DNA from: Dehalococcoidia bacterium
GTDB taxonomy: Bacteria > Chloroflexota > Dehalococcoidia > Lucifugimonadales > UBA1123
Reading direction: 5' to 3'
DNA length: 64,000 nucleotides
NCBI GenBank assembly: GCA_963664365.1
Contig: OY761144.1
Coordinates: 1,513,596 to 1,577,595 of the forward strand
Below the pieces are notes generated by a model. The model worked only from the letters and a program-made list of their open reading frames with translations, was not told the DNA's origin and made no database searches. Below, piece by piece: positions 2,045 through 50,636 of the stretch (positions are counted from its first letter, which is position 1; each line of letters begins with the position of its first letter). The translations under genes were made by a program, and so were the position numbers.

Positions 2045-2794
2045 TTATATCGCCGTGAGTCCCCCGTCGATGACGAGCTCGCTGCCCGTCATGTAGGAAG
2101 ACTCGTCCGACGCCAAGAACAGCGCCCCCTTGGCCACGTCTTCCATGGCGCCGAACATTCCCATAGGTATAAACGCTTCCCTCTGCGCGCGCAACTCCGA
2201 GTCCGGGTAGACCTCGTCGAGCATCACCGTTTCAATCGGCCCCGGGTGGATCGAGTTGCACCGGATGCCGTCCGCGGCATACTGGATAGCCGTGGACTTG
2301 GTGAGGAGTCGCACCGCGCCCTTGGACGTGTTGTACGAAGTGGCCTGAACGCTGCCGGTCAGCCCGGCGACGGACGATATGTTGACGATCGAACCGCCCC
2401 CCGCCTCCCGCATTGCCGGAATGACGGCCTTGGCGCCCAGGAAGACTCCCTTGGCGTTGATGCTCATGACCCGGTCCCAAGTTTCGATAGTCTGACTCTC
2501 CACGGTGGACCTGTCGAATATCCCCGCATTGTTGACCAGGATATCCAGATTGCCGAATCGCTGCGCCGCCGTTTCCACGGCCTGCCGCCAGTCCGATTCG
2601 ATGGTCACGTCCAGCTTGACGAAGACGGCCTCGCCTCCGGAAGCGACGATCTCTGCCTGAACCCGCTTACCCTGATCCTCCAGAACGTCCCCCAATACGA
2701 CTTTGGCTCCCTCAGACGCGAAGAGCCTAGCCTCCATCGCTCCCATGCTCCTGGCCCCGCCGCTAATGAGCGCTACCTTTCCTTTGAGCCGCAT
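2045..2794 (-). CDS. SDR-family oxidoreductase (classical short-chain dehydrogenase)
   Basis: 249 aa. GKVALISGGARSMG Rossmann motif, NNAG, and the S...YxxxK catalytic pattern (YNTSK). Confidence 0.9.
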   Translation of the reverse strand: MRLKGKVALISGGARSMGAMEARLFASEGAKVVLGDVLEDQGKRVQAEIVASGGEAVFVKLDVTIESDWRQAVETAAQRFGNLDILVNNAGIFDRSTVESQTIETWDRVMSINAKGVFLGAKAVIPAMREAGGGSIVNISSVAGLTGSVQATSYNTSKGAVRLLTKSTAIQYAADGIRCNSIHPGPIETVMLDEVYPDSELRAQREAFIPMGMFGAMEDVAKGALFLASDESSYMTGSELVIDGGLTAI

Positions 2795-2906
2795 GACTTC
2801 CCTCCGTCGCCCGAACTTAAAGAGATTGTACTACGCCCTGAATCCAATGGCTGACAAAAGACATCTTATATCGGTAAACTGTGAACTACAAATCGAGCGA
2901 GGCGCC

Positions 2907-3797
2907 ATGTTCAGACGCATTTCAGTATTCGGGCTTGCCGCCGGTATTGTGGGCCTGTCTGCCTGCGGGACCACTGACCCTGAGGCTCCGTCCCCAGAGC
3001 CTACGTCGCCGCCCGCGCTAGTCCAGGTTGTCCCGACAGCTACTCCGACCGTGCCGCCGCCTACGACACCGCCTGCCACGCCGACCAGCGCGCCCACACC
3101 CACGACACCACCTGCAACTGCTACCGGCGCACCCGCCCCGACAACACCGCCTGCAACTGCCACCGGCGCGCCCGCGCCCACGACACCGCCTGCCACTGCT
3201 ACCGGCGTACCTGCGCCCACGACACCGCCTGCCACGGCGACCGCAGTGCCCGCTCCGACGACACCACCGCCTACGGCGACCACAGCGCCCACTCCGACGA
3301 CGCCACCGCCCACGCCCACGACACCGCCTACGCCAACCGCTGTCGCCGTGAAAATCGGCAGCAATGTGGGCGAGCGTGTCCCTGACTTCGACATGGCCGT
3401 CACCGGCGGCGCGACTGTCACGGCGGTCAGCCTGATAGAGGTCGGTCGTCCGACGTTCCTGTTCTTCCACTCATCCACTTGACCGGTCTGTCGCTCTGAG
3501 TTGCAGAGCCTGAAGGGAATCTACCCCGAGTTCGCCGGCAGCGTCGACTTCTACGCCGTCAACGTCAACCCGATTGATGACCTCGACGACTTCACTGAAC
3601 ACGGCAAGCAGCGAGGATACCCTTGGCCGATGGCCCAGCCCGGCGAAGGGATGCTCAAGAGCTTCGATGTTACGTACCAATCTACAAAGGTGGCCTTCGG
3701 CGCGGACGGCGTAATTGTGTACCGGGCCGGGTTCAATGGAGGAAACGCCGAGGAGTGGCGGGAACTGTTCAGGCAGCTAGCGTCAGGGGCCAGCTAG
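2907..3797 (+). CDS. lipoprotein with Pro/Thr-rich linker and TlpA/ResA-like thioredoxin-fold domain; in-frame UGA (3480-3482) read as candidate selenocysteine (T-U-P-V-C)
   Basis: ATG at 2907 with GAGCGAGG upstream. Signal peptide plus lipobox VGLSAC. ORFs 2703..3482 and 3501..3797 share one frame. The junction FLFFHSST-U-PVCRSELQSLKGIYPEF matches the FWxTWCxPCrxE motif of thiol-disulfide oxidoreductases. Confidence 0.65.
3033..3340 (+). repeat. coding low-complexity tandem repeat (PTTPPATATGAPA-type Pro/Thr/Ala linker, units of about 33 nt)
   Basis: Near-identical units (ccgacaacaccgcctgcaactgccaccggcgc...) are visible in the sequence and the translation. Confidence 0.85.
3480..3510 (+). 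promoter_or_regulatory. UGA plus SECIS-like hairpin (stem 3493-3498/3504-3509, loop AGUUG)
   Basis: GCUCUG-AGUUG-CAGAGC begins 11 nt after the UGA. The apical loop starts 16 nt after the UGA and has G-U at loop positions 2-3. G3490-C3510 can pair across a 2-nt bulge. Confidence 0.5.
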
Positions 3798-5003
3798 TAG
3801 TGTGTCCACATAATTATGATGGGTAGATATGTTGGAGTTTAGTGCGAGCATCCTGGGTGGAGAACCGCCAGTCTATGACTGCGGCAGCATTGTTGCGCTC
3901 GCGTTCCAGCGCAGAGACCTCTCTTTTCAGTGCTGCTTCATCGCCGATCCGACAGCTCAGACACTGCCTGCTGAAGACGCTGAACTCGATCTCAGCCATG
4001 TTCAGCCAACTTCCATGATTCGGGGTGTAGTGAAACTCCAAGCGTTTGGCTATACGACGCGCTTCGGACGGCTCAAACGCTTCGTAGAGCGATCCGAGCT
4101 TGTGGGTGTTGAGATTGTCCAGCACCAGCCTGACCACCCCAGCGTGAGGGTATGCCTCATCAACCAGCCAGCGCATCTGATGAGCGAAGTCCACAGCAGT
4201 GCGACGCTCGGTCACTTCGACATGCCTCCACCCGCCCTTGGGTTCGCAGAACATGAACAGGTTGCGGGTGCCGTTTCGCTTATACTCGGTGTCATAGCGT
4301 TCCACTCGTCCGGGCCTCGCCTCAATTGCCGGTCTCACATCCTTGACCAACTGCTTGGATGTCTCATCGAAACAGACCACTGGATGGTCTGGGTCATAGT
4401 CTTCTTGGTAGAGGTCGAGCACGTCCTCCATCCGAGCCACGAACTCCCCACTCACTTTGGGAATGCACCACTCCTTCCTTTGCCACGGCTTGAGTTCGTT
4501 TTTTTCAGTATCCGGCGCACCGTCTCAGGCGAGATGCTCTCAGAGAACCCCATCTCCACCACCTTGCCCGCAAGCATCCGGAGAGACCATCGCGTGTGTC
4601 CTTCGGGCGCTGCGCTGCAGGTGATAGCTACAAGGTGCGCTTCCTGCTTACCGCTCAGCTTGCGCTTCTGTCCCGGTCGAGGTCGCTCATTGATTGCACT
4701 GTCGAGTCCCTCCTTCACAAACCGCGTGCGCACACGTCCCACCGTGGGTGCGCTTATCAATAGTCCGCTGGCGATATCACGGTCGGTCAGACCTTCATCT
4801 GCCTTCAGCAACACCAGCGCTCGCTTGACCTTACGCGCCGAAGTCTCGCCACGATTCGCTATCTCCTTGAGTTGTGTCCGCTCCGACTCGTTCAACTCCA
4901 CCTTGTACTTGAGAGCAGGCATGTCTTCGTATGTCCTCCTAATAGGATCATACACAATTCTAACCAATTTCTTATATTTGTAAAATACATGTGGACACGG
5001 TAC
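3797..5003 (-). mobile_element. IS630-family insertion sequence (1207 bp) flanked by TA
   Basis: Terminal inverted repeats GTAGTGTGTCCACAT (3797-3811) and the reverse complement of 4989-5003, GTACCGTGTCCACAT (13/15 identical). TA sits on both flanks (3795-3796 and 5004-5005). The element encodes an HTH plus DDE transposase. Confidence 0.8.
3814..4922 (-). CDS. IS630-family transposase, two overlapping frames joined by a -1 shift at an A7 run (4499-4505)
   Basis: The upstream frame (MPALKYKVELNESERTQL..., HTH domains) ends in ...RILKKTNSS. Shifting -1 on CUGAAAAAAAC gives ...RILKKNELKPWQRKEWCIPKVSGEF..., the conserved IS630 junction. The downstream frame carries DDE residues (FDETS, LDNLNTH, WLNMAEIEF). 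Confidence 0.8.
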
Positions 5004-5159
5004 TAGTCCTTCGATGGCGAAGTAGTTCAAAACCTCAGGATTCGGGCGGGGAGGGGACATGACCAAGGGGCGAGCGAGCCCGGTGAGTTTGAGGCGGTAT
5101 AGCGCTCCGTCTGCTAGGATATATCAGAAGTATTCCAACTCGAATGCTCGGAGACACTC

Positions 5160-5534
5160 GTGAACACTTATAGCGCCGTAGCCGAGGAGTTCGCCCGTAG
5201 GGTGGTAGCGAACCTGGGAGAGCAGGTCGAGTCCGTGATTCTGTACGGCTCGGTTGCCCGGGGCGATGCCGGCCCGGAGAGCGACATAGACATTCTGGTC
5301 GTCTGCCCTGGCGCCAAGTCTTGCTGGGACGCCGTCAGTGGCATTGCTGATGATATCGTTCACCAAAACGGGTACTCCTTGCTTGTCTCTGAGGTCTGCT
5401 ACAGTCGGGCAGATTTTCTGGAATTTAATCGCATCGGATCACCGTTCATCAAGAACGTACTGGATGAGGGCGTGCCGCTCCATGACAATGGAATCTTCTC
5501 AAGATCTCGCGACGAAATACTTGCAGTCGTCTGA
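5160..5534 (+). CDS. nucleotidyltransferase-domain protein (MNT-type antitoxin-like)
   Basis: 124 aa with a GTG start. ILYGSVARGDAGPESDIDILVV is a minimal nucleotidyltransferase motif. Confidence 0.8.
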   Translation: MNTYSAVAEEFARRVVANLGEQVESVILYGSVARGDAGPESDIDILVVCPGAKSCWDAVSGIADDIVHQNGYSLLVSEVCYSRADFLEFNRIGSPFIKNVLDEGVPLHDNGIFSRSRDEILAVV

Positions 5535-5880
5535 GCAAGCACTGAGCGACGCTGGCCTCCTTCTTCAGCATGACCGGCTCCAAGCCGCGGCGAATCGCGC
5601 CTACTACGCCATGTTCTATGCCGCGTTGGCGGCTCTGGCCCACATGGAAATTCAAAAACTCCCTCGAACCCATCGTGGCGCTCTCAGCCAGTTTGGGCAG
5701 CATTGCATCGTAAACGGGCCAATAGACCCCCGATTCGGGACATACTTGAGGCGAGCTCAAAACCTGCGACGGCAGAGCGATTACCAATTGAACGTGTCCT
5801 TTGCCGATGAGCAGGTTGCCGGTACAGTCCAAAACGCCCAGGCTTTCGTGGCGGAGATCAGGCGCGTAACTGGTCTATGA
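5482..5880 (+). CDS. HEPN-domain protein (toxin-like partner of the nucleotidyltransferase)
   Basis: AANRAYYAMFYAALAAL ... RRQSDYQ (the Rx4-6H region is degenerate). It overlaps the 3' end of the NT gene in another frame. The start was chosen at MTMESSQ and is uncertain. Confidence 0.7.
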   Translation: MTMESSQDLATKYLQSSEQALSDAGLLLQHDRLQAAANRAYYAMFYAALAALAHMEIQKLPRTHRGALSQFGQHCIVNGPIDPRFGTYLRRAQNLRRQSDYQLNVSFADEQVAGTVQNAQAFVAEIRRVTGL

Positions 5881-8531: not shown

Positions 8532-9113
8532 TCACTCCCCCGACAGGCGTTCGAGGGCGGCGCGGATTCGGTCTTCTTCGGACGCATCGGCGGCGGTTCG
8601 GGCGAGCGCCTCGCGGGCTTCGTTGTCGCCGTATCCGAGCGCGGTTAGCGCGTCCACGAGGTCGGAGTCCGGGCCGGCGACGCCTGCGTCGGCGAAATCG
8701 AGGTCGAGCTTGCCCTTCAACTCCAGTACGATGCGGCTGGCGGTGCGGCGTCCGATGCCGGGCACGGAGGACAGCGCCTTGGTGTCGCCGGACTCGACGG
8801 TTTGAGCCAGGGACTGCGGACTGAACCGGCCCAGCATGGCGAGGGCGAGGCGCGGGCCTATCCCGCTGACGTTGAGCAGGGTCTCGAAGGTCTGGCGTTC
8901 GTCGTCGGTCGGGAATCCGAACAGGGTCAGGCTGTCCTCCCGCACTTGGAGGGAGGTAAACAGGCGCACGGGCTCGCCGACGCGACCGACGCTGCCGACG
9001 GCGGTATCGGGCACGTGTACGCGCAGAGTGACGCCGCCCACGCCAACCTCAACCCAGTCGGCGCCCGTGCCTTCTAGGGTTCCGGCTACTGATGAGATCA
9101 ACGAGGAAACCAC
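8532..9113 (-). CDS. ruvA: Holliday junction branch migration complex subunit RuvA
   Basis: 193 aa. HhH motifs LLNVSGIGPRLALAML and LSSVPGIGRRTASRIVLEL. Adjacent to ruvC. Confidence 0.9.
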   Translation of the reverse strand: MVSSLISSVAGTLEGTGADWVEVGVGGVTLRVHVPDTAVGSVGRVGEPVRLFTSLQVREDSLTLFGFPTDDERQTFETLLNVSGIGPRLALAMLGRFSPQSLAQTVESGDTKALSSVPGIGRRTASRIVLELKGKLDLDFADAGVAGPDSDLVDALTALGYGDNEAREALARTAADASEEDRIRAALERLSGE

Positions 9114-9780: not shown

Positions 9781-10299
9781 GTGCTTGACTTGAACCAGCT
9801 AGGAGATGGTCTCCCGGCCATAACGCCTAGCTTTGGTAAGGCGCTGGCGGAGGCAGCGGGAGTCTGCTTGGAGTCGCAAGGCCAAGCGCAGATGACTAGG
9901 CTCACCATCAGAGGTCACGTAAGCGTCGAGCGCCCTTTGGTGTGGCCGCAAGTCACTGAGCAAACCCGCAGGACTTGGAACGATACGGAAGAGGCCACCG
10001 AGTACGGCGCCACGGGTATCGCGGTCTTGATCGCTCGTCAAGAACTAGGATACTTCGCGGTAGAGCGTTCACCCAAGGGGACTGGCATTGACTACTGGTT
10101 GGGCGAAGAGTCCGATTCGATATCCTTGGAGCGCAAGGCAAGACTGGAGATTTCTGGCATTCGCAATGGCTCCAGCAACATGGTCAGGAACCGTGTGCGA
10201 GAGAAGCTTCGGCAAGCTACTCCGTCAGACGGCCCCCTACCGGCGTTTGTAATCGTAGTTGAATTCGGTACTCCACTCGCTGAGGTTCAGATGAAATGA
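9781..10299 (+). CDS. hypothetical protein, possible degenerate PD-(D/E)xK-like fold
   Basis: 172 aa with a GTG start. The pattern EEATEYG...GIDYWLG...ARLEISGI...VIVVEF resembles E / D / ExK-type nuclease core strands. No family recognised. Confidence 0.5.
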   Translation: MLDLNQLGDGLPAITPSFGKALAEAAGVCLESQGQAQMTRLTIRGHVSVERPLVWPQVTEQTRRTWNDTEEATEYGATGIAVLIARQELGYFAVERSPKGTGIDYWLGEESDSISLERKARLEISGIRNGSSNMVRNRVREKLRQATPSDGPLPAFVIVVEFGTPLAEVQMK

Positions 10300-10667
10300 G
10301 TACAGCCAAGGAACTGCACGATCAGGCCATGGATCTCGTGGAGACGGCGATCCTCGAACGGGTCAGAGGTAATACGAATCTAACTGTCAAACTCTATGCG
10401 GAAGCGCTGGAGCTAGAGCTTGCCGCTATCGCAGTACTGGACGAGTCTGGTCAGACAGCAGAGCCCACATGGTCAGTCCTCCACCGGGGCGCAGGTTGGA
10501 TGGCGTTCAATAGCAACCAATTTCGTCGGGCTGAAAAGCTCGCTTGCAAAGCTTTGGCTGCGGACCCTCACCCCGAAATCGCCAAAGAACTCCGCGACTT
10601 GCTCAGACAGGCCTACACTCGGTTGCGTCCACAAGTGGCGGAATCGACTCCGGCGGCGGATGACTAG
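10296..10667 (+). CDS. hypothetical all-helical (TPR-like) protein, translationally coupled to 9781..10299
   Basis: 123 aa. ATGA overlap with the upstream gene. Helical repeat-like sequence (LYAEALELELAAIAVL..., AEKLACKALAADP). Confidence 0.5.
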   Translation: MSTAKELHDQAMDLVETAILERVRGNTNLTVKLYAEALELELAAIAVLDESGQTAEPTWSVLHRGAGWMAFNSNQFRRAEKLACKALAADPHPEIAKELRDLLRQAYTRLRPQVAESTPAADD

Positions 10668-10888
10668 CTCGCGGTTGGCGTTGGCTGTGGACTGTCGTGC
10701 TTCGCGAGGAGTTCACTGACGGCGGGAACCAGATCCTTGGGAATCGCCATCATCGTGTACTCCGAACTCTCATAGGCTGCCTCGTCTTCTGCCACGGCTT
10801 CTTCTTCTGTCTGAGACTCGTAGTATTCGAGTACGCCGCGGACGCGCTCCGCGTCCCATCCGGGCGGGAAATGCGGCTCTCTCTTCAT
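10664..10888 (-). CDS. small acidic protein, antitoxin-like (no partner toxin visible)
   Basis: 74 aa. PPGWDAERVRGVLEYYESQTEEEAVAEDEAAYE...IPKDLVPAVSELL. Convergent with the 10296 gene, with a 4-nt overlap. Confidence 0.45.
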   Translation of the reverse strand: MKREPHFPPGWDAERVRGVLEYYESQTEEEAVAEDEAAYESSEYTMMAIPKDLVPAVSELLAKHDSPQPTPTAS

Positions 10889-11007
10889 CTTCGCCTCTTT
10901 CTCATAGATTTGTCCACGAAGGACACGAAGGTCTCTATGGGGCTGTAGCTTCTTGGTGAGATAGTGCCAGATAAGAGGAGCAAAGACTAACTCACCGAGA
11001 GGAGCTA

Positions 11008-12018
11008 TTATCGACCCTGCCTGCTCTCTTTTTCCTTAGCCCTAGTCAATTGGAAGAAATTATTGTCTTGGCGGTATCGATTGATGACCCAATCGATGAA
11101 GGCTTGGCTATACTGAACTGGTGAGCCTTGGATCTTGCCCTGGAAGAAGTACTCCCGGTTAGCCTTTACCTTGTAAACCCTATTGAGGCAGGTGACGTCA
11201 TATGCGTTTATTGCCTTATATCCTAACTCCCGGTTTACCTCCTCAATCAACTCTTTCTGCCTATACGGATGTGTTGTGGCGGGGTCCTTGGCAACCTCAA
11301 TAACTTGGGTCGGTTCACCATCTCCGGTTCCTGCTGAGAGTATGATGTCCCCATCATCGCGTCGTTTCGTAAGTACAAGTCGATACTCGATTCCGATTGC
11401 GAATTCCGTAGAGCGCTCAAGCTCGATGGACTCCCTCCTAAGGTCTGCACAGTATCGGCTGAGATACTCCGTAGTATCTCTTCCGAGTTGCATCCTCAAC
11501 TGAGCATCAGCCATATCAGACTGTTCTGGACTCAGATCATAGACTATGGTCATCATGCCGAGAGGATATTGGTCGGCAAGTGATTTACCAAACCAATTGT
11601 TCAATCGGTTGTGGTAGTTGATTGCTCCGGCTTGAAACAAGCCAATGACATCGCGGGGGATTCTGCTGATGACAAGGTGGACCGACTCATCTCTTAGGTC
11701 TTCAATGCGCTCTATGTTTCGCCGCATTGGGTCTCTCTTATTTGGCATGGCCTTCTTCAGACAGTCTCGCAAAGAGAGCGATCTAGCCTTATCTCCCGCC
11801 TTCCGCTTCTTGTAATATATTGATGCCTCTCGACCACTGTCATGGACAATTTTTGCTTTAAGCAGTAGTTCCCAAGCATTGCAGAACAAGTAACAAAATG
11901 ATTCCAAGCGATATTCAATAGTAAGTCGGTTAATAGTCTCCAATGAAAGTACATATGCTTCAATGCTCTTGTCTAGCAAGCGTTCTTTGAGATTGAAGTT
12001 ATTGAAGTCGTTCGCCAC
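11008..12018 (-). CDS. DUF3644-like protein (R-M-associated)
   Basis: 336 aa. The N-terminal SIEAYVLSLETINRLTIEYRLESFCYLFCNAWELLLKAKI matches my recollection of the DUF3644 signature (..AWElLLKA..). It lies directly downstream of hsdM-S and is visibly more AT-rich than its neighbours. Confidence 0.6.
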   Translation of the reverse strand: MANDFNNFNLKERLLDKSIEAYVLSLETINRLTIEYRLESFCYLFCNAWELLLKAKIVHDSGREASIYYKKRKAGDKARSLSLRDCLKKAMPNKRDPMRRNIERIEDLRDESVHLVISRIPRDVIGLFQAGAINYHNRLNNWFGKSLADQYPLGMMTIVYDLSPEQSDMADAQLRMQLGRDTTEYLSRYCADLRRESIELERSTEFAIGIEYRLVLTKRRDDGDIILSAGTGDGEPTQVIEVAKDPATTHPYRQKELIEEVNRELGYKAINAYDVTCLNRVYKVKANREYFFQGKIQGSPVQYSQAFIDWVINRYRQDNNFFQLTRAKEKESRQGR

Positions 12019-12027
12019 AGTTTTTAC

Positions 12028-14475
12028 TTAAGCTTCAGTACCCCACACCCGGTCAATCGCATCCTGAATCTTCTGCTCGAAGCGAGTGATTAGCTCGCGG
12101 TTGGCGTTAATGAGAGCTTGTTCGGCTTCGATCTCGGCGACGATGCCTTGTTGTATTTCAAGAGAAGGCAGAGGTACCTCATGATTCTCAACAACCGTCT
12201 TTCGCATCGACGGTGGATGTGCGTCACTAGCCCAGGTTGACAGATCAAATCCTGAAAGGTAAGAGTAGAGATATTGAGGCAGAAGTTTGTCTAGATTGGA
12301 CACTATACCCATCACGTTGTTATCGTATGTGGATTCTCGACTTAGAATGCGTTTCTTGTTTGTAGCTATTGCAGCGCCGATTTTCGGAAAAATGACCGTT
12401 CCTTTCGGGAATGACTTCGCTTTGAGTTCAGCAAGCGTATCGTGAGATATAGTATTGTTCCAAGACAGTATCTCTATTTCGTTTCCGTCCAAGTTCATGT
12501 CGCTGACCTTGAGAAATGGAATTGCTTGGCTGACGTCCCCCTGATACCTAGTTGGAAAGCCGAATCCACTCTGAACTGAAGATATTTGTTTCACAGGGAC
12601 CATCGGCCACCCTGGATCAATAGTAATCTGGGGGTGGTAGTTGTCGATCACGGTTCGCGCTCCGTCGATGATCTTCTGGTAGCCCTCAATCTCAGCCACG
12701 ATCTCTTTTTGCACTTCCAGCGGCGGCAGGGGAATCTGGATACCCCTGAGATTCCGTTGGTTGAGCTTAGGGACAGTGACACCGGTAACGTACGAAGCAA
12801 GGTCCATTTGATTCAGGACTTCAATCAGATATCGGTCAATCAGCCTGTCACGCATAGGACGGATAACGTGCGCGTGGTTGTTGACCCAAACTTTGCCGTC
12901 AACAGGGAATGAACTTCTCTCTCTTGGTCCCCACTTTGCTCCATCTTCCCCCACCAGCACCAACGGCTCATCGAAAATGTAGTCATCAACATAATCGAGA
13001 ACCCCCGTCGCGCCGTAGTAGGGAAATGGCCCTGACTTCCTGTCGCTCTTGGTTATGGGCCTTCGTTGTTTATCCAAAATCTCCACAAGAGTATCCAGTG
13101 ACTCAGAAGGAAACTGTGCCGTGCGAGCGCTAATTTCCCGATACCGCTCTCCACTCAGATTATACTCACCATCCTCAGCGATCTTCGCCTTCGTCACAAC
13201 AACCGTCACATCTTCGTGAACCTTCGTGTCCTTCGTGGATGAAACAGACCTCAGATACTCCCGCACCGCTAGCGCTGTCCGCGGCAGGTCGTTCTCTGAG
13301 ATGGGGCGGCGCTGGTCGCCGAGGTCGAATCCGTCGTTTTCGACCTTGAAGAAGGCGATGCTATCGGTCTTCCTGGCGAGCGCTCTGTCCAGTATGAGGA
13401 TCGAGGTCTTGACGCCGGAGTAAGGCTTGAACACTCCGGCGGGCAGCGAGACGATGGCGACGAGATAGTTCTCGACCAGCATCTTGCGTAGATGCCTGTG
13501 GGCGTTCTGGCTCTGGAAGATGATTCCCTCGGGCACGATGATTCCGGCGCGGCCCGCCGGGTTCAAATGCTCGGCCATGTAGTCCACGAACAGCGCCTCG
13601 CTGCGCCGGGACTGAACGGAGAAGCGGTTGTGCGGACGGATGCCGCCCTTCGGAGACATGAACGGCGGGTTGGCGAGTATCACGTCGGCGAAGTCGTTCC
13701 AGCGGTCTTCGCTGGTGAGGGTGTCGTACTCGAATATGTGCGGATCGACGAAACCGTGCAGGTACATGTTCACGAGGGAGAGCCGCACCATGTCGGGCGA
13801 AATGTCGTAGCCCTGGAAGTTGTCGGCCAGCCGAGTCATGTCGTCGGGAGTCAGGACGCTGTTTCCCTCCCCGTCCCTGTTGGCGGCGAGGATGTGCTTG
13901 TATGAGGAGATGAGGAACCCGGCGGTGCCGCAGGCTGGGTCGAGTATCACCTCGTCCTTCTTCGGGTCGATAATCGAGACGATGAAGTCGATGATGTGGC
14001 GCGGGGTGCGGAATTGCCCGGCGTCTCCCTGCGAGCCGAGTACCGAGAGCAGGTACTCGAAGGCGTCGCCCAGCCGCTCGGAGTGGTCGTAGGTGAACTC
14101 GTCGATTACCTTGAGGAACGCTCGCAGGGTCTCAGGGTCGCGGTACGGCAGGAAGGCGTTGTTGAAGATGTCTCGGAAGAGAGGAGGAATGCCGGGGTTC
14201 TCGGGCATCCGAGTGATGGCCTCGGCGTAGAGGTTCAGCATCTCGTGTCCGCCGATTCCAGGGCGCATCAGCCTGGCCCATCCGTAGCGGGCGAACTCGC
14301 CGGCGAAGAAGGTGCGCTCCCCGCCAAGCTCTTCGGCCTGCGCGTCGATGTCGTCCATGAACTTGTAGATCAGGGCGATGGTGATCTGCTCGACCTGTGA
14401 CTTTGGGTCGGGCACCTTGCCGACGAGGATGTCGCGGGCGGTGTCTATGCGGCGTTTCGTTTCGGTGTCGAGCAT
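12028..14475 (-). CDS. type I restriction-modification methyltransferase fused to the specificity subunit (HsdM-HsdS fusion)
   Basis: 815 aa. HsdM N-domain, the FRTPRH and DPACGTAGFL motifs, and the catalytic NPPF (LANPPFMSPKG). The HsdM C-terminal YNLSGERY is followed by two target-recognition domains, each ended by a conserved helix (LPPLEVQKEIVAEIEGYQKIIDG and LPSLEIQQGIVAEIEAEQALINANRELI). Confidence 0.85.
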   Translation of the reverse strand: MLDTETKRRIDTARDILVGKVPDPKSQVEQITIALIYKFMDDIDAQAEELGGERTFFAGEFARYGWARLMRPGIGGHEMLNLYAEAITRMPENPGIPPLFRDIFNNAFLPYRDPETLRAFLKVIDEFTYDHSERLGDAFEYLLSVLGSQGDAGQFRTPRHIIDFIVSIIDPKKDEVILDPACGTAGFLISSYKHILAANRDGEGNSVLTPDDMTRLADNFQGYDISPDMVRLSLVNMYLHGFVDPHIFEYDTLTSEDRWNDFADVILANPPFMSPKGGIRPHNRFSVQSRRSEALFVDYMAEHLNPAGRAGIIVPEGIIFQSQNAHRHLRKMLVENYLVAIVSLPAGVFKPYSGVKTSILILDRALARKTDSIAFFKVENDGFDLGDQRRPISENDLPRTALAVREYLRSVSSTKDTKVHEDVTVVVTKAKIAEDGEYNLSGERYREISARTAQFPSESLDTLVEILDKQRRPITKSDRKSGPFPYYGATGVLDYVDDYIFDEPLVLVGEDGAKWGPRERSSFPVDGKVWVNNHAHVIRPMRDRLIDRYLIEVLNQMDLASYVTGVTVPKLNQRNLRGIQIPLPPLEVQKEIVAEIEGYQKIIDGARTVIDNYHPQITIDPGWPMVPVKQISSVQSGFGFPTRYQGDVSQAIPFLKVSDMNLDGNEIEILSWNNTISHDTLAELKAKSFPKGTVIFPKIGAAIATNKKRILSRESTYDNNVMGIVSNLDKLLPQYLYSYLSGFDLSTWASDAHPPSMRKTVVENHEVPLPSLEIQQGIVAEIEAEQALINANRELITRFEQKIQDAIDRVWGTEA

Positions 14476-14490
14476 GTCTGAACTGTGATT
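14476..14490. repeat. inverted copy of the 15-nt motif AATCACAGTTCAGAC, abutting the hsdM-S start codon
   Basis: gtctgaactgtgatt at 14476-14490 is the exact reverse complement of 14600-14614 and 15046-15060. Confidence 0.9.
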
Positions 14491-14599
14491 CCTCTGATTT
14501 TGGGATTTTCATGATTACTTGGCTGAATTCAGGTAGTCTTCTAAAGCAGTCTCTGGCATGGAGTCTAGCACATAATCACCTCAATCATTGAGTCACACG

Positions 14600-15060
14600 A
14601 ATCACAGTTCAGACAGAGGGTCGAGTCGACTTCTCTGTCTGAACTTGTTGTTGGCCACTCTATTGAATTCGAGGCTCTTTGCGCCGAAGTTGATGAGCAA
14701 GCCGACTTCGAGGTCGAACGCCTCCAGGTAGTTGATAGCCTGCGCCAAGTGAAGGGCTTCAAGCTTGCTGATTGCCTTCAGTTCGACAGAAACGACTCCC
14801 TCAACCAGAAAGTCAACTCTGCGAGTACCGATTTGCTGTTCCTTGTAAAAGATGGGCATCTCATGTTCACGGCCGAAAGATATTCCTTGGTCTGCCAATT
14901 CAATTGCTAATGCGCGCTGATAGATTACTTCCTGAAAGCCGCTGCCCAAAGTGGAATGCACCGTCATGGCGCATCCGATAATCCTTCCCGTCAACTGGGA
15001 GTGCTTGTACTCTCTCCTAATCACAGTCCATCATTCCATCAGATAAATCACAGTTCAGAC
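14600..15060 (-). repeat. GxxExxY gene cassette bounded by perfect 15-bp direct repeats (14600-14614 and 15046-15060)
   Basis: AATCACAGTTCAGAC is exact at both ends, 446 bp apart. One copy follows the hsdR stop codon and the other contains the GxxExxY stop codon. Confidence 0.8.
14602..15024 (-). CDS. GxxExxY-family protein (PD-(D/E)xK-like)
   Basis: 140 aa with a GTG start. LGSGFQEVIYQRAL (the GxxExxY motif) ... RVDFLVEGVVSVELKA. Confidence 0.85.
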   Translation of the reverse strand: MIRREYKHSQLTGRIIGCAMTVHSTLGSGFQEVIYQRALAIELADQGISFGREHEMPIFYKEQQIGTRRVDFLVEGVVSVELKAISKLEALHLAQAINYLEAFDLEVGLLINFGAKSLEFNRVANNKFRQRSRLDPLSEL

Positions 15061-15062
15061 TA

Positions 15063-17603
15063 TCACGCGGCGAATTGGTTTAGGGAGACGTAGTCCATGA
15101 TGTACTCGCGGACGAGGCTACGGTACCGCTGGGGCACGGCGCGGTAGTCATTGATGGAGAATCCGGGGTTTGTCGCGAGGGAGGCAAACTGGCGGGTGTC
15201 TATGATTCTCCTGACTTCCTCACTGGTTACGTAGGCCTTGAAGTACGTCTTGACGGCAGTGACATCCCGGGGACTGGGCGGCGCGTGGTCGGTGACGAAC
15301 TTGGCGAACTCCTCTTCCAGAAGCTCGTCTTTGGACTTGAACCCGGTAATCAGCCCCAGCGCGCGCTCGACGAACTCGCGAATTGTCACGCGGCGATCGA
15401 CGGACGTCGCGCTCCGCAGCCTTTCCAGGTTGTAGAAATCCTCCGGCTTGTCGAATATCTCGCTCCTGACATGGTCGCTGACGATGCCCCATTGCCCGGC
15501 CTCGGCGGCCGCCTTGATAATCTCGTCGTCCCGTACTTGGTCTGCGAACCTGTCGAACAGCATCCGGTCAACCTTCATGCCGGACGCTCCAACCTGCTCC
15601 TCGCTGATTTCGGCGAGAACGTCCGGCCCCAGGTATTCGTAGCCATGGACGGTGACCGGGCCAAAATCGACGCCCCCGTTGCTCGGCTCTCGCCGCTTCC
15701 GCGGTGGCAGCTTCAGAACCTGGTCGTAGTCGAACTCTTCCTCGAAGTACTCGCAGTTGCCGAAGAAGTCGAACAGCTTGAAGGTCGTCTTCTCTGCTGC
15801 GTCCACGTCTATGTTGGCATCGCGTCCGCGGAACTGGTCGAGGAAGTTGTGCTTTCGGGTGCCGCGCCCCTTGATCTGAACGAAGTCGGTCGGCGAGAAG
15901 ATTGGGCAGAACAGGCCGAGGTTCAGAATGTCGGTGCAGTCGTAGCCGGTGGTCATCATGCCGACGGTCACGCAGACGCGGGCCTTGCTGGTGCGGTACT
16001 CAGGCGAGGCGTTGCCGGAGCCGAGCAGGTTGTTGTTGGCGAAGTTGACGGTGAAGCGCTGGGCGTCGGGGATATGCGACGTGACCTGCACGGCGAAGTC
16101 GGACTGGTACTTGCCGGGGAACTTGGCGTCCGCGATCTCGTTGAGAACCTGAGTCAGTTTGGCCGCGTGGTTCTGGCTGACGGCGAACACTATGGACTTT
16201 CCGATCTCCCCGCTTATCGGATCGCGCAGCGCGTTCTCAATGAACGTCCGGCAGAACAGCTTATTGGTAGCCTCTGAGAAGAAATCGCGCTCGAAGTCGC
16301 GCTTCTTAAACGCCTCCTCCTGGTACTCGCCCGCGTCGTCGGTGAACGACACGATGAAACCCTTGTCAGCAAGAAGCTGCGTTGTCACGTCAGTGCGTGC
16401 ATCGACGAGGGTTGGGCTGATGAGATACCCGTCTCGCACGCCATCGATGAGCGAGTACCGGTAGGTAGGTTCTCCGCTCTCGCACCCGAAGGTGCGGTAG
16501 GTATCGAGCATGAGCCTGCGCTCGATCTCTCGCGGGTCACGGACATTCGGGCCGAGCGTACCCGTGCCTCTTAGGTAGTCGCGGGGAGTCGCCGTCAAGC
16601 CGAGCTTGTAGCCGACGAAGTAGTCGAAGACGGAACGCGCGTTGCCGCTTATGGAACGGTGGGCCTCGTCGGAGATCACGAGATCGAAGTCCGTAGGCGA
16701 AAATAGGGACTGGTACTTGTTGTTGAACAGCAGAGACTGGACGGTGGTGACGACTATCTCTGCATGGCGCCAGTCGTCGCGCCTCTCCTTGTAGATGACG
16801 GTATCGAAATCGTTGGAGAGGTAGTCGTTGAAGGCGCGGTCCGCTTGGCCTTCCAGTTCCAGCCTATCCACGAGGAACAGCGCCCGGCTCGCGTTGCCGG
16901 TTCTAAGGAACAGCTTGATCACGGCGGCGGCTACCAGCGTCTTTCCGGCGCCGGTAGCCATCTCGAACAGGAACCTGTCTCCGCCGTCCTGCACGGCCCG
17001 TTGAAGACTGCGGACGGCGCGAATCTGATAGTCCCGCAGGAATCTGAGGCCGTTGGCCCGAATGAATACCGGACGCTCCGCATCGTTCTTCCAGGCGGCC
17101 TCAGAGGCGTAACCGGGCCTCTGTGTGAGCGCGATATAGTCGTCGCCAACTTGCTCGTTGATTAGCCGTAAAGGGTTGGGCTTGACCTTGTCGTACCCGG
17201 TGACCGAGTCGGGAGACGGAAAGACGCTGATAATGTGCGGGTTGCCGCGTTCGAGGTCCCAGAAGTAATGAAGGTTGCCATTGGACAGGATGACGAATCG
17301 GCAGTTCTGCGATCTGGCGTACCTTCTGGCCTGTTCCTTGCCGGTCAGCGGGTTGTGGTCCTCAGACTTGGCTTCGAGCACGACGAGGGGAAATCCCCTG
17401 GAGTCGAGCAGCAGAAAGTCGACGAATCCCCTACCTGTCTTCTCGAAGTCCTCTCCGAGGGCGTCGAGGTCGTTACTGCTTATCTCGACGTGCTGTTCGA
17501 GTCGGATGTTGGCGGGCCGATCTCCTTCCGGGAAGAAGCGCCAGCCGCTCTTTTCGAGCAGCCGGTTGATCTTGATGCGCGCCGTCGCCTCGTTCATGCG
17601 CAT
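15063..17603 (-). CDS. hsdR: type I restriction enzyme R subunit (HsdR) with EcoEI-R-like C-terminal domain
   Basis: 846 aa. N-terminal nuclease-like region (FVDFLLLD...VVLEAK), helicase motif I MATGAGKT, DEAH box VISDEAHRS, motif VI QIKGRGTR. Confidence 0.9.
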   Translation of the reverse strand: MRMNEATARIKINRLLEKSGWRFFPEGDRPANIRLEQHVEISSNDLDALGEDFEKTGRGFVDFLLLDSRGFPLVVLEAKSEDHNPLTGKEQARRYARSQNCRFVILSNGNLHYFWDLERGNPHIISVFPSPDSVTGYDKVKPNPLRLINEQVGDDYIALTQRPGYASEAAWKNDAERPVFIRANGLRFLRDYQIRAVRSLQRAVQDGGDRFLFEMATGAGKTLVAAAVIKLFLRTGNASRALFLVDRLELEGQADRAFNDYLSNDFDTVIYKERRDDWRHAEIVVTTVQSLLFNNKYQSLFSPTDFDLVISDEAHRSISGNARSVFDYFVGYKLGLTATPRDYLRGTGTLGPNVRDPREIERRLMLDTYRTFGCESGEPTYRYSLIDGVRDGYLISPTLVDARTDVTTQLLADKGFIVSFTDDAGEYQEEAFKKRDFERDFFSEATNKLFCRTFIENALRDPISGEIGKSIVFAVSQNHAAKLTQVLNEIADAKFPGKYQSDFAVQVTSHIPDAQRFTVNFANNNLLGSGNASPEYRTSKARVCVTVGMMTTGYDCTDILNLGLFCPIFSPTDFVQIKGRGTRKHNFLDQFRGRDANIDVDAAEKTTFKLFDFFGNCEYFEEEFDYDQVLKLPPRKRREPSNGGVDFGPVTVHGYEYLGPDVLAEISEEQVGASGMKVDRMLFDRFADQVRDDEIIKAAAEAGQWGIVSDHVRSEIFDKPEDFYNLERLRSATSVDRRVTIREFVERALGLITGFKSKDELLEEEFAKFVTDHAPPSPRDVTAVKTYFKAYVTSEEVRRIIDTRQFASLATNPGFSINDYRAVPQRYRSLVREYIMDYVSLNQFAA

Positions 17604-22063: not shown

Positions 22064-23527
22064 CTACCCCCGCTTGTGGAAGAAGACTACGTCGTCGGCG
22101 AAGGGCTTGTCGTAGTCTTCCGACCCGGCGAGTCCTATCTGTCCCTTGCCGGTGACTTTGTTCTTCGTGCCGTCCATTCGGGGATCGACGTACCTGTCGT
22201 ACCATGTTTCCAGGTCGGCCCTTAGCGACGCGATGCGCTCCTCGTGATTGGGGTCGTCCACAAGGTTTCGGGTCTCGAATGGGTCGTTGGCTAGGTCGTA
22301 CAGTTCGTTGGGGCCGTTGGGGTAGCGGTGGACGTACTTCCAATTGTGGGTGCGGATCATGCGAGTGGGCCCGTATTCGTCGAGGACGAATACGGGCGTG
22401 TCGTCCGACATGGACTCGCCTCGCAGGACGGGGGAGAAGTCTCTGCCTGGGAGCGGTTGGTCGGAATTCGCCTCCAGGCCGACGTATCCGAGCAAGGTCG
22501 GCATGAAGTCGTACTGGCTGAGCAGCTTTTCGCAGACCAAGTCCTGGGGAACGTGGCCCGGCCTCGAGACCAGCATCGGAACCTTGACAGAGGTGTCGAA
22601 CATGTTGGGAGGGTAGGTGCCGTTGCCCTTGCCCCAGATTCCATGATGACCCATGTTCATGCCGTTGTCGGAGTTGAACACCACCAGCGTGTTCTCCCTG
22701 AGTCCGTTCTGCTCCAGCCAGTCCAGCATCCTGCCGATGTTGCGGTCCATCTCCTCGACGGCGGTGAAGTAGCCGCTCAGCGCCTCTCGGCGGTTCTCGG
22801 GGGTGTCGCCGAGCGATCCGGCGGACCCCTCCTTGGCCAACTGGTTGATGTGAATTTTCTCTTCAGATAGGGAGTGGAAAGCTGTGTTCGCGTAGTGGGC
22901 ATCGAATAAGTCTGCCGGGTGGTTTTCCCTGCTCCAGGGGGCGTGCGGCGCGGTGTAGTGGACATTTAGGGAGAACGGCGCGTCGGACTCAAGCTGCGTG
23001 TCCAGGAACTCAAGCGCGTGGTCCGTGATGATGTCGGTCACGTATCCGGCCGGCTCATAAGGCTGACCGTTCTCGAACATTAACGCTCGGTAGTAGAGTC
23101 CGCCGCCCCTGGCATGGACGTTCCAGTAGTCGAATCCGAGCTGGGGGAGGCCGGAGCTGCCCAGGTGCCACTTGCCGCTAAGTCCGCAGTCGTAGCCGTT
23201 CTCGGCGAGCGCGTGGACATAAGACCTGCGTCCGGCGAGATACTCGATCTCGAGGTCGTCCTCGGGCAGGAGCTTAGAATTGCCGGCTCGCAGAAAGTCT
23301 TGGACGCCGTGCTGGGACGGGATCTGGCCCGTGAGGATCGAGGCCCTGGCCGGAGAGCAAACGGGCGAGGCGCAGAAGAAGTTTTCAAAGCGGATGCCCG
23401 TTGCGGCGAGACGGTCGAGATTGGGTGTAGTTAGCTCGTCGTTGCCGGCGCAGCCCATGGCCCAGGCGCCCTGGTCGTCGCTGAGAATGAAGAGTATGTT
23501 GGGTGTTCGGGTGTCTCTGCTTGCCAT
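22064..23527 (-). CDS. sulfatase (Cys-type, formylglycine-dependent)
   Basis: 487 aa. NILFILSDDQG and the CSPARASILTG (CxPxR) motif. Confidence 0.9.
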   Translation of the reverse strand: MASRDTRTPNILFILSDDQGAWAMGCAGNDELTTPNLDRLAATGIRFENFFCASPVCSPARASILTGQIPSQHGVQDFLRAGNSKLLPEDDLEIEYLAGRRSYVHALAENGYDCGLSGKWHLGSSGLPQLGFDYWNVHARGGGLYYRALMFENGQPYEPAGYVTDIITDHALEFLDTQLESDAPFSLNVHYTAPHAPWSRENHPADLFDAHYANTAFHSLSEEKIHINQLAKEGSAGSLGDTPENRREALSGYFTAVEEMDRNIGRMLDWLEQNGLRENTLVVFNSDNGMNMGHHGIWGKGNGTYPPNMFDTSVKVPMLVSRPGHVPQDLVCEKLLSQYDFMPTLLGYVGLEANSDQPLPGRDFSPVLRGESMSDDTPVFVLDEYGPTRMIRTHNWKYVHRYPNGPNELYDLANDPFETRNLVDDPNHEERIASLRADLETWYDRYVDPRMDGTKNKVTGKGQIGLAGSEDYDKPFADDVVFFHKRG

Positions 23528-28293: not shown

Positions 28294-29082
28294 TCAGCCC
28301 AGCATCACCCTGACCGCGCTCACGAACTCCAGCGCCCGTTCAACAGCCGCCGCGACCTCGTCCTGCGAGAACGAAACGTACAGTTGGTAGTCGCTCTGTC
28401 GGCGCAGTTCGTAAGTCTCCTTCAACTTCTCCGCCAACGACGCATCGAACAATCCGGTAGTGACGTAGCGTAGCCCAAACTGGTTTGCGACGCCCCCGTG
28501 CGTTCTTGGTGGAGCGCTGTCCGTACGCGCAAGAGCAGCCGAAGCGGCATAGAACATTGCATAGTAAGCGCGGTTCACGGCAGCCCTGAGGAGTCCTTGA
28601 TCTAAGTTGACCTTGGCAGTTGCGAGCGCTTCATCAGCTAATTCCAGATGTCGGACCACATGTCTCTCTTTCATGACCTCGATCTCCGCGTCGGGCAGTT
28701 GAGCGCTTTCGGCGCGCGCCTTCGAAAAGATACCCGTGTCATAAAGGACCACCCCATCTTCCAGAATATTCATGACCAGAGGCGACCCCAGACTGTGGAA
28801 CTCCAGAAACTCGCTCCTGTCATAGGCGGTCGTCTCCACGAAGAACCGGAACCCGGTCTCGCGCGCCTGGTCATACTCGACTTTCGTGAGCGCCTTGCCG
28901 ATGCCGTCATCCCCCGACCCAACTACCAGCACATCTACATCACTATCTGGCCCGGCGTCGCCCCTAGCCACCGAGCCATACAGCACGATCGAATCGACCC
29001 GGTCACCAAGCGTAGCCCGAACCCGCCGAGCAAAATCCTCAGCAGCCGCCCTGAGTTCGGATTGGCGCGTTGTCGTAGTCAT
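28294..29082 (-). CDS. fused nucleotidyltransferase-HEPN protein
   Basis: 262 aa. LYGSVARGDAGPDSDVDVLVV at the N-terminus and AVNRAYYAMFYAASAAL...RRQSDYQ at the C-terminus. It is a paralogue of the split pair at 5160-5880. Confidence 0.8.
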   Translation of the reverse strand: MTTTTRQSELRAAAEDFARRVRATLGDRVDSIVLYGSVARGDAGPDSDVDVLVVGSGDDGIGKALTKVEYDQARETGFRFFVETTAYDRSEFLEFHSLGSPLVMNILEDGVVLYDTGIFSKARAESAQLPDAEIEVMKERHVVRHLELADEALATAKVNLDQGLLRAAVNRAYYAMFYAASAALARTDSAPPRTHGGVANQFGLRYVTTGLFDASLAEKLKETYELRRQSDYQLYVSFSQDEVAAAVERALEFVSAVRVMLG

Positions 29083-31404: not shown

Positions 31405-31434
31405 GTCTTGTACTACCTCCCTCTTGGAGTGAAT

Positions 31435-48868: not shown

Positions 48869-49025
48869 GTCAGCAGCGTTGCCCTTGTTGTACACAGTGA
48901 ACGCCAATACAATGTACACTGACGGAAAGACGCCGAGAGGTATAGAACAACCATGTACCGACTAACGGACAAGATATACGGCTGCCTCATGGGCGGGCTG
49001 ATCGGCGACGCGATGGGCGCTCCCA

Positions 49026-50636
49026 TTGGCAATTGAGTTGACGAAGAGAGTTTACATACTGCCGACCTTGATCGCGCTCGTCGCGGTCTGGGTTTCCTGC
49101 GGCGGCGGAACGTCTGAGCAGCCGACTCCGACGGCCACGCCGCAGGTGATCGTCCGAGTTCCCGCAACTCCGACGCCGATGTTGGCGCTGGCGCCGATCC
49201 AAACTATGCCTCCGATTGAGACTCCGACGCCTATCCCAACGCCTACCGAAGTGCCGACGCCGGAGCCGACGCCCACTCCGCGCCCCTACGACTCGGCGAC
49301 TGTGATGTACGACCTGACGCCTCCGTTCGCCGCGGGGTCGGCCCAACTGCTGAGCGTTCTCCAAGAGATCCGGGACAACGACGACAAGTCGCTCGTGCCC
49401 GTGCTGGTGGAGATACTGCGCTTCGTGCCGACGCGTGAGCTGCTGGAGGGCACAGGCGAAACTCTCCGCGCCCTGAGCGGGCAATCCATCGAAGATTTCG
49501 CCTGGGACAAGTGGATGGAGTGGCTGGGCCGGAACCTCGCCGACTACCAGCCGCCGTCGGAGTACCCGGCGTGGAAGGCGGAGATGTACGGCAAGCTGCA
49601 TCCTCGGTTCGAGGTCTTCTTGGAGCCGGCGAGCGAGTATTCGAGAATCGACCCGACTGAAATCGTATGGGGCGGCGTCCCGCCCGACGGAATCCCCGAC
49701 CTGGCCAATCCGCAATTCCTCGCGCCGGACGAGGCGGACTACATGCTGCCGGACGACAGGGTATTTGGCGTGGAGGTCAACGGCGACGTCAGGGCGTACC
49801 CGCTGCGCATAGTCAACGCGCACGAGATGGTCAACGACACGGTCGGCGGCGAGCCGATCAGCCTGATGTGGTGAACGCTCTGCGGGACCGGAATCGTGTA
49901 TTCCGCCAAGATAGACGGGGAACCGACCACATTCGGGACGTCCGGCTTCCTCTATCGCTCCAACAAGCTGATGTACGACCGCAAGACGAATTCGCTTTGG
50001 AGTTCGCTCGTCGGCAGGCCGGTGATAGGCGAGTTGGCGCAGCGGGACGACCTGGTCCTCGACTTCTTCCCGGTGTCTCTGACGACGTGGGCGGAGTGGC
50101 TGGCAGAGCATCCGGATACGAGCGTTCTCTCGGACCGGACTCAATACTACCCACCCCAGTTCTACGGGCCGGAGTCCAGCCCGCAGTCGATCTACTTCGC
50201 GTACCGAGAACACCCGGGAACGATGTTCCCGGTGTGGAACCAGGATGACCGCCTGGAGGTCAAGGACGAGGTTTTGGGTGTAATAGTGGACGGCGTAAAG
50301 AAGGCTTATCCCGTGAAGCTGTTCCAAGAAGAGCGGCTGATCAACGACGCGGTCGGCGGCGCCAACATCGTTCTGGTCGCCTCCGGCGCTCTGTCCGACG
50401 GCCGCGTGTTCGATCGCGGCGACGTGACTTTCGAGAGCGTCGATGTCGGCTCAGACGGCGTCATCCAATCGGTGATAGACGCGGACGGCAACTCTTGGCA
50501 AATCGAGGAGGCGGGCCTGACCAACGCCGACAACGACACCGTCCTGCCCAGAATCCCGACGCTGATCTACTTCTGGTTCGGATGGTACGCCTTCCACCCG
50601 GACACTCTGCTGTACGAGGGCGAAAGCGCTCCCTAG
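49026..50636 (+). CDS. DUF3179-family lipoprotein with Pro/Thr linker; in-frame UGA (49872-49874) read as candidate selenocysteine (W-U-T-L-C)
   Basis: ORFs 49026..49874 and 49896..50636 share one frame. The joined sequence is VRAYPLRIVNAHEMVNDTVGGEPISLMW-U-TLCGTGIVYSAKIDGEPTTFGTSGFLYRSNKLMYDRKTNSLWSS. This matches the DUF3179 core as I recall it (..TYCPLCGSG..FGvSGlLy.SN.vMyDr.T.SlWsQ), with UGA at the first Cys. Lipobox VWVSC. The start codon (TTG) is uncertain. Confidence 0.65.
49872..49907 (+). promoter_or_regulatory. UGA plus SECIS-like hairpin (stem 49889-49894/49900-49905, loop CGUGU)
   Basis: CGGAAU-CGUGU-AUUCCG. G49885/G49886 can pair with C49907/C49906 across a 2-nt bulge. The architecture matches the hairpin at 3490-3510, and the loop starts 20 nt after the UGA. 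Confidence 0.5.

Follow-up and report, generated by a model that had tools for sequence, protein, structure and literature searches.

We analysed a 64-kb stretch of Dehalococcoidia DNA (64,000 nt of contig OY761144.1, assembly GCA_963664365.1, positions 1,513,596 to 1,577,595; hereafter the window) that contains an apparently split gene near its start. We conclude, with a probability of roughly 0.9, that this is one gene for a surface-anchored thioredoxin-like selenoprotein, and that TGA 3480-3482 in its middle is a genuine selenocysteine (Sec) codon. The conservation of this TGA across a family of homologues, a covarying hairpin downstream of it and the existence of homologues with cysteine at the same site carry this conclusion. 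Coordinates are positions in the window, and features lie on the plus strand unless stated otherwise.

The initial annotation described two open reading frames (ORFs) in one frame, and the sequence confirms this arrangement. ORFs 2703..3482 and 3501..3797 are offset by 798 nt, or 266 codons, and only TGA 3480-3482 and six sense codons lie between them. The TGA, codon 192 of the full gene, is directly preceded by GRPTFLFFHSST and directly followed by PVCRSELQSLKGIYPEF. The sequence of the globular domain runs VGERVPDFDMAVTGGATVTAVSLIEVGRPTFLFFHSST-TGA-PVCRSELQSLKGIYPEF, later QSTKVAFGADGVIVYR, and ends at TAG 3795-3797. One Pfam AhpC-TSA match (E 2e-11, 44.4 bits, cut-off 26) covers residues 154-256 and runs straight through codon 192. 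Pfam Redoxin also gives one unbroken match over this codon, extending to residue 272 (Cys substituted for the stop). Neither half is a thioredoxin-fold domain by itself, in agreement with the earlier claim that neither would function alone.

The TGA is a fixed feature of the family to which this gene belongs. A protein search with the domain as query returned 51 matches, roughly 45 of which are C-terminal fragments of 92-114 aa (most 95-103 aa) whose called start codon, an artificial GTG or TTG, lies just past the TGA position. One match, P0051, is the complementary N-terminal stub and ends in ...FLFFYSST. P0012-P0016 and P0019 consist of a C-terminal half, a Pro/Thr (PT) linker and then an N-terminal half that ends in ...FLFFFSST/ASF. 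The sole 'full-length' match, P0007 (JGI), has W at the site, where the underlying DNA has TGA. In this record (L001, JGI Ga0643534_0328822, positions 459-461), the public call rendered the Sec-TGA as Trp, as in genetic code 4, and P0007 consequently shows a spurious 'WW'. The W at the equivalent site of P0222 (RYWGKC), a protein of an AT-rich organism, may reflect the same artefact.

Locus scans seeded on the peptide STKVA.., well downstream of the TGA, yielded 43 species-representative genome loci and six metagenome loci. All 43 genome loci come from Dehalococcoidia or Chloroflexota metagenome-assembled genomes (MAGs), several of them closed chromosomes. Our count of domain copies takes in these genome loci, the metagenome loci, L001, the window and L055, a contig fetched via selA; metagenome locus L050 begins downstream of the TGA position and contributed no copy. 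TGA occupies this codon in all 70 domain copies, and TAA, TAG, TGC and TGT in none. The downstream half continues in frame after the TGA in every copy (70/70), so the family is not one of genes truncated at this point, an outcome that the initial annotation had named as damaging to its proposal. The copies come from independent assemblies and diverge down to ~40% protein identity, and a TGA that recurs in this way is not a read error. The active-site context is SST-U-PVC-R in the window and ATW-U-PxC-R in most relatives, and the resolving Cys codon encodes Cys in 64 of 64 family copies (29 TGC and 35 TGT).

Substitutions in the family show that the whole gene is translated. Pairwise differences at codon positions 1, 2 and 3 are 0.35, 0.28 and 0.56 upstream of the TGA and 0.27, 0.26 and 0.49 downstream of it. 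Since third positions dominate on both sides, both halves are translated in this frame. The downstream half of the window gene retains every family-invariant residue.

Several relatives have more elaborate architectures. Tandem paralogues, two or three per genome, occur in many genomes. Some relatives (L009, L012 and P0012-P0019) contain two TlpA-like domains on a PT linker, each with its own TGA and selenocysteine insertion sequence (SECIS), and would thus incorporate two Sec residues. The two TGAs fall in a single reading frame at 8605 and 9394 of L009 and at 8658 and 9429 of L012. P0176 is a fusion whose first domain has Cys and whose second halts at ...FAATW, the Sec position.

We compared the hairpin at 3493-3509 with a published bacterial SECIS (bSECIS) model (PMC13188914). 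This model asks for a loop of 3-9 nt, a stem of 4-16 bp, a G in the first two loop positions, a UGA-to-loop spacing of 16-37 nt and a minimum free energy (MFE) of at most -7.5 kcal/mol. The window hairpin passes, with a 5-nt loop (AGUUG) in which G at position 2 is followed by U, a 6-bp stem, 10 nt between UGA and stem, 16 nt between UGA and loop and an MFE of -8.8 kcal/mol. The earlier description of a hairpin with bacterial SECIS spacing and a loop G-U thus stands, and the hairpin also covaries. An Rfam scan of the window at gathering thresholds returned tRNA-Trp alone, with no SECIS family and no tRNA-Sec.

Constraint at the RNA level is visible in the codons that form the hairpin. Synonymous differences occur at a rate of 0.06 within the hairpin, about eightfold below the 0.48 and 0.43 of its flanks. 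Codons +4 to +9 are nearly frozen synonymously, including CGC in 62 of 63 copies, TCC in 51 of 52 and CGG in 61 of 61. The Leu codon of the hairpin is TTG or TTA in 63 of 63 copies and never CTN, even though the genome is ~60% GC. Beyond the hairpin, four-fold degenerate codons each use three to five synonyms.

Where the stem does change, it changes in pairs. A C-G pair became U-A in the window and L001 (codon changes TCC>TCT and CGG>CAG), a U-A pair became G-C in L001, L019, L020 and L023, and a C-G pair became G-C in L044. Among 32 distinct sequences, 92% of the cells are paired and three of the six pairs show double changes. The covariation score of 0.212 compares with 0.089 in shuffles and was reached by none of 500; slid controls also scored lower. 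RNAalifold on its own recovers the inner four pairs. These comparisons show that the hairpin is under RNA-level selection, and its decay or loss in the Cys homologues (below) ties it to the UGA.

The initial annotation placed the UGA at the nucleophilic Cys of a CxxC motif, and alignments to cysteine-containing proteins bear this out. Thioredoxin-fold relatives in the PDB, found by sequence (2ls5, tryparedoxins, DsbE/CcmG, ResA and StoA), align their first active-site Cys (WCGVCR, WCPPCR, WCTVCK) to the TGA. We also searched 1.84 billion representatives with a profile of the post-TGA half only, which recovered full-length Cys homologues, among them P0175 (...FFFATWCPVCRSELRRMKDIYPEF..., ATW-C-PVCRSEL) and P0177. 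The codon at the Sec site is TGT in P0175 and TGC in P0177. We had considered that the family might be obligately Sec-containing, with no Cys homologues, and dropped this idea because the profile search turned them up.

These two Cys homologues differ in what remains of the hairpin. In P0175 (L051/L052, TGT near position 1270), the RSELRR peptide and the greater part of the SECIS sequence survive, but the stem has one U-C mismatch and one wobble pair. The hairpin is absent from P0177 (L053/L054). The sequence of L051/L052 suggests that Cys replaced Sec recently and that the SECIS is now decaying.

Part of the Sec machinery is encoded next to family members in related genomes. A tblastn search with an E. 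coli SelA sequence found matches in L022 and L024, and NCBIfam TIGR00474 confirms both as selA equivalogs (567-568 bits versus a cut-off of 268). The selA genes (6487-7845 in L022; 4251-5609 in L024) precede the family gene by 1.8 kb and 4.1 kb, respectively. A third locus, L055, found via the SelA homologue P0059, contains selA (10001-11359), a HAD hydrolase gene, a family gene (TGA at 13371) and recN; across the three loci, selA and the family gene are about 2-4 kb apart. The order of selA, HAD hydrolase, further genes, selenoprotein gene and recN is kept in one Dehalococcoidia clade. ARAGORN found no tRNA-Sec in the 43 loci or L055, and tblastn with E. coli SelD and with SelB queries found no selB or selD in the loci examined. 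Two candidates were rejected: a tblastn match to SelD in L027 is actually ThiL, followed by a small ORF that is TsaE-like by eye, and a 647-aa ORF beside selA in L024, considered as SelB, is a histidine kinase. L027 derives from chromosome OZ252212.1 and carries a family gene. More broadly, two Dehalococcoidia MAGs, with 46-49 selenoprotein genes, rank among the ten most selenoprotein-rich bacteria in BSepDB (PMC13326102).

Several observations weigh against a functional TlpA-type selenoprotein in this organism. None of selA, selB, selD and tRNA-Sec lies within the 64-kb window. The single-sequence stability of the hairpin is unremarkable, with a z-score of -1.7 over 25 nt and ~0 over 46-141 nt (range -1.7 to +0.9); since thermodynamics alone cannot support the hairpin, the case for it is comparative. 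The loop AGUUG misfits an optional element of the consensus, the N1/N2 closing pair. In the phmmer alignment, the tryparedoxin motif IPT pairs with QST, which leaves the window protein without the conserved cis-Pro. Finally, neither a CcdA/DsbD-type partner nor a client pathway turned up among the ~47 window ORFs scanned, or when the 14 neighbour clusters shared by the most loci were inspected by eye, with no family scan.

Of the alternatives, the one that survives best is that the UGA mainly terminates translation here, the Sec trait having been lost or selenium being limiting, such that the product is a 191-residue truncated lipoprotein and the downstream half is a relic or is separately expressed. 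Sec insertion in bacteria competes with release factor RF2, and the Sec machinery was seen in relatives' loci only, with SelA confined to L022, L024 and L055. However, the window hairpin is intact and includes a compensated pair (C-G to U-A), all family-invariant residues persist in a downstream half that is no thioredoxin fold without its partner, and a second window gene, encoding a DUF3179 protein, likewise keeps its whole family domain over an in-frame TGA. We therefore regard termination as very unlikely.

Still less probable is that a suppressor tRNA or an altered code places a standard amino acid (Trp, Cys or Gly) at the UGA, with no involvement of selenium. The JGI rendering of a homologous TGA as W would be consistent with this, TGA is a single step away from TGG, and W often precedes the site. 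Conversely, TGA terminates 24 of the 56 likely window ORFs and is the stop codon of many family genes; it is thus not globally reassigned. The window contains one tRNA gene, which encodes an ordinary tRNA-Trp (anticodon CCA). The site is also that of a redox-active Cys, the SECIS fits the SelB-dependent model and decays where the codon is TGT or TGC, and SelA is encoded near family members. A pseudogene, arisen by a nonsense mutation or sequencing error in the gene for a CxxC thioredoxin-like lipoprotein near an insertion element, has in its favour the IS630-like element that abuts the stop codon and the two ORFs of the public gene calls, but we discard it, as we do a read error, because TGA (never TAA or TAG) recurs in 70 of 70 copies from independent assemblies with the downstream half in frame, third-position-dominated substitution indicates purifying selection on both sides, the hairpin that follows is conserved and covaries, and the C-terminus has the length of its orthologues.

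Read as a selenoprotein gene, the locus encodes a protein whose predicted fold is that of the extracytoplasmic TlpA-type reductases. We used the AlphaFold2 model of the homologue P0007, which is 48% identical and has a mean predicted local distance difference test (pLDDT) score of 73 (72-93 per 10-residue block in the domain). Foldseek placed this model closest to 2ls5 (a Bacteroides lipoprotein disulfide isomerase), ResA, CcmG, StoA, TlpA, SdbA, Etrx1 and Etrx2 among PDB entries, with E-values of 4e-10 to 6e-7 and target TM-scores of up to 0.82. The model thus points to a TlpA-type thioredoxin fold, and the WCxxC active site lies at the start of helix 1, as expected of that fold, with U for the first Cys. 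We rejected an assignment to the peroxiredoxins despite the AhpC-TSA match, because the motif is UxxC and not PxxxTxxC/U and the structural neighbours are of TlpA/ResA type. No peroxiredoxin was found among the 50 best Foldseek rows, and the sequence search returned a single BCP with a weak E of 0.0085.

The position of the thioredoxin cis-Pro sets the family apart. Across the family, the S, T and K of Q-S-T-K vary hardly or not at all (alignments A1 and A3), and Ser holds this position in the Cys homologues as well; more distant relatives have T-T-T-K or Q-A-T-T. With Ser in place of cis-Pro, the enzyme may not share the chemistry of ResA and TlpA.

Lipobox motifs (LAAACG, VACG and similar) were found by pattern match in most homologues. 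The lipobox and PT linker that the initial annotation had noted are both present in the window protein, and together with the lipoboxes across the family they suggest that it is exported.

We infer Sec insertion in this organism, as well as the lipidation, reductase direction, substrate and electron donor of the protein. In the mechanism we propose, SelB with GTP and Sec-tRNA(Sec) would bind the hairpin during translation, and Sec would be placed at the UGA in place of termination. The lipoprotein signal peptide would direct export of the 296-residue pre-protein, a lipid would anchor it at Cys20, and the long Pro/Thr linker would keep the catalytic domain off the membrane. Sec192 would then attack a substrate disulfide or oxidised thiol to form a mixed selenenylsulfide, which Cys195 would resolve to an intramolecular Se-S bond. 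A CcdA/DsbD-type membrane electron shuttle may re-reduce the enzyme.

Selenoproteins of this general type have been catalogued since 2005, and the initial annotation overstated the novelty of the gene. Two such groups are described (PMC1088965, from the Sargasso Sea, 2005; PMC13188914): Prx-like thiol:disulfide oxidoreductases (PF00578, UxxC or UxxU, one or two Sec) and 'thiol-disulfide isomerase-like' proteins (cd02966 TlpA-like, UxxC). The window protein combines PF00578 with UxxC, which is the definition of the Prx-like family (PMC13188914), and by that definition it belongs there; the type members WP_010940744.1 and MGB1650493.1 were compared by description only. Like both groups, it has a PF00578-scoring thioredoxin fold, Sec first in UxxC, Cys homologues, a SECIS immediately downstream and a marine or uncultured source. 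Unlike them, the clade of the window protein is confined, among the genomes sampled, to Dehalococcoidia and is marked by a lipobox and Pro/Thr linker, Ser for cis-Pro and a near-invariant SECIS sequence.

ResA, TlpA, CcmG (DsbE) and StoA are the best structural and sequence neighbours and share the W-C-x-x-C-R context and a membrane-tethered, outward-facing placement. They are Cys enzymes, whereas the window protein has a Sec nucleophile and Ser for cis-Pro, and their tether is a transmembrane helix rather than a lipid anchor with a long PT linker. Genes for cytochrome c maturation, Sco or CcdA were not seen near the window gene. Etrx1 and Etrx2 of Streptococcus pneumoniae (4hqs and 2yp6; Foldseek ranks 27 and 48) are likewise surface lipoproteins with TlpA-like thioredoxin domains, but they are Cys enzymes with known partners, CcdA and MsrAB2, for which we identified no counterparts here.

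As in the E. coli fdhF-type SECIS and the bSECISearch consensus, the hairpin follows the UGA within the coding sequence and has a small G-U apical loop. It differs from the fdhF type in its short 6-bp stem, in a 16-nt spacing at the lower limit and in the bulged U, which is absent in most family members; L022-type variants have a 3' bulge. The NCBIfam family NF053656 ('TUGYCR motif thioredoxin fold (seleno)protein') is similar in that it is a thioredoxin-fold selenoprotein with a T-U...C-R context, but we rejected membership at 19.2 bits versus a cut-off of 100. No other NCBIfam model reaches its cut-off either, the best being MauD (29 bits versus 189), which accounts for the split gene calls in NCBI/ENA records.

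A further proposal, to which we give slightly less than even odds, is that these proteins form a distinct, uncurated selenoprotein subfamily of Dehalococcoidia surface lipoproteins. Read jointly, its marks would be Sec in every sampled genome copy, Ser for cis-Pro, a near-invariant SECIS, tandem paralogues, polypeptides with two UxxC motifs, the mixed fusion P0176 and linkage to selA in one clade. If true, this would imply a selenium-dependent extracellular redox function specific to these abundant marine or sponge-associated bacteria.

Public calls present these genes as an N-terminal stub plus a 92-114 aa 'hypothetical protein', or with the TGA as Trp. Because its members are mis-called in this way and no NCBIfam model reaches cut-off, a clade of active-site selenoproteins in Dehalococcoidia is invisible to routine pipelines. 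The selenoproteome of this Sec-rich class would gain a lipid-anchored, outward-facing UxxC enzyme, with two-Sec fusions in relatives. The clean, covarying and minimal SECIS, with its 6-bp stem, NGUUG loop and spacing of 16 nt, could also help to refine bacterial SECIS models. The present findings leave knowledge of Sec decoding and of UxxC thioredoxin-fold function unchanged.

Table 1. Features of the selenoprotein gene, the adjoining insertion element and the second candidate gene in the window
Feature	Coordinates	Strand	Basis
Weak sigma-70-like promoter match CTGACA-18-TAAACT (putative)	2851..2880	+	Consensus match only, 9/12
Shine-Dalgarno-like GAGG, 4 nt ahead of ATG 2907	2899..2902	+	Read from sequence
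Full selenoprotein coding sequence, 296 residues, Sec = codon 192, TAG at 3795-3797	2907..3797	+	Translation, Pfam, family-wide in-frame continuity
Predicted lipoprotein signal peptide MFRRISVFGLAAGIVGLSAC, lipobox L-S-A-C, candidate lipidated Cys = residue 20	2907..2966	+	Regular expression, no dedicated predictor
Pro/Thr/Ala-rich linker, ~125 residues	2967..3341	+	Translation
TlpA/ResA-like thioredoxin-fold catalytic domain	3342..3794	+	Pfam; PDB sequence matches; Foldseek with homologue model
UGA as Sec, N-terminal nucleophile of the U-P-V-C redox motif	3480..3482	+	Family conservation; Cys in homologues
TGT, resolving Cys of UxxC (Cys195)	3489..3491	+	Invariant in family
Bacterial SECIS hairpin GCUCUG-AGUUG-CAGAGC	3493..3509	+	bSECIS criteria, covariation, synonymous constraint
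Q-S-T-K motif, Ser259 at the thioredoxin cis-Pro position	3678..3689	+	Alignments; equivalence from phmmer alignment
IS630-like insertion element (context, not part of the gene)	3794..5006	-	HTH and DDE_3 transposase ORFs
DUF3179 gene, in-frame TGA 49872-49874	~49026-50636	+	Pfam DUF3179 across the TGA

The promoter-like match (Table 1) sits in a 112-nt divergent intergenic region between the selenoprotein gene and a short-chain dehydrogenase/reductase (SDR) gene (2045-2794, minus strand). A divergent SDR gene is the commonest conserved neighbour of the family, found in 27 of 48 loci, and this could be plain synteny or a functional link. Within the linker, a 39-nt unit (13 residues) is tandemly repeated 5.7 times at 3058-3281.

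On the other side, the gene runs directly into the IS630-like element. The element comprises a helix-turn-helix (HTH) ORF (4452-5066, minus strand) and a DDE_3 ORF (3814-4455, minus strand). Its 18-nt terminal inverted repeats (3794-3811 and 4989-5006) begin within the CTAG that contains the stop codon of the gene. Despite the adjoining element, the C-terminus of the window selenoprotein is equal in length to those of its orthologues.

Only two in-frame TGAs of the window are credible Sec codons, those at 3480 and 49872; the remainder lie in antisense frames or at gene junctions. The second is in the DUF3179 gene, where the context GGEPISLMW-U-TLCGTG again forms a UxxC motif. Pfam DUF3179 spans this TGA with profile positions 2-292 of 292 (E 2.4e-74), and DUF3179 with UxxC/T is a listed selenoprotein family (PMC13188914). 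A lipobox (VWVSCGG) and a PT linker make the product a candidate lipoprotein. The hairpin CGGAAU-CGUGU-AUUCCG starts 14 nt past the TGA and is weak, at about -4.4 to -5 kcal/mol. A long antisense ORF over this gene (48987..50327, minus strand) was rejected as an artefact. In L019 (6168-7133 and 16387-16668), a DUF3179 orthologue lies 3 kb from the thioredoxin-like selenoprotein gene; it shares the TGA (LAY-U-TLCGTG), and its hairpin is identical. A Cys paralogue (RCPLC) is present elsewhere in this locus.

Elsewhere in the window, a type I restriction-modification cluster occupies 11008-17603. On the minus strand it encodes an N6 methylase-specificity fusion protein (12028-14475) and a ResIII/HsdR protein (15063-17603). 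Its GC content is 0.51-0.57, versus ~0.61 elsewhere, and the cluster may have been horizontally acquired. Two nucleotidyltransferase/HEPN modules of the MNT-HEPN type are present at 5160-5880 and 28294-29082, of which one is split into two ORFs beside the IS630-like element and the other is a single fused protein of 262 aa. A sulfatase, a DUF1501/DUF1800 pair and a formylglycine-generating enzyme (FGE-sulfatase) are encoded at 22064-23527, 30256-32844 and 52000-52974; in the DUF1501 ORF, Pfam covers the C-terminal third only. We take this sulfatase, DUF1501-DUF1800 and FGE content to be associated with marine or sponge-associated Dehalococcoidia.

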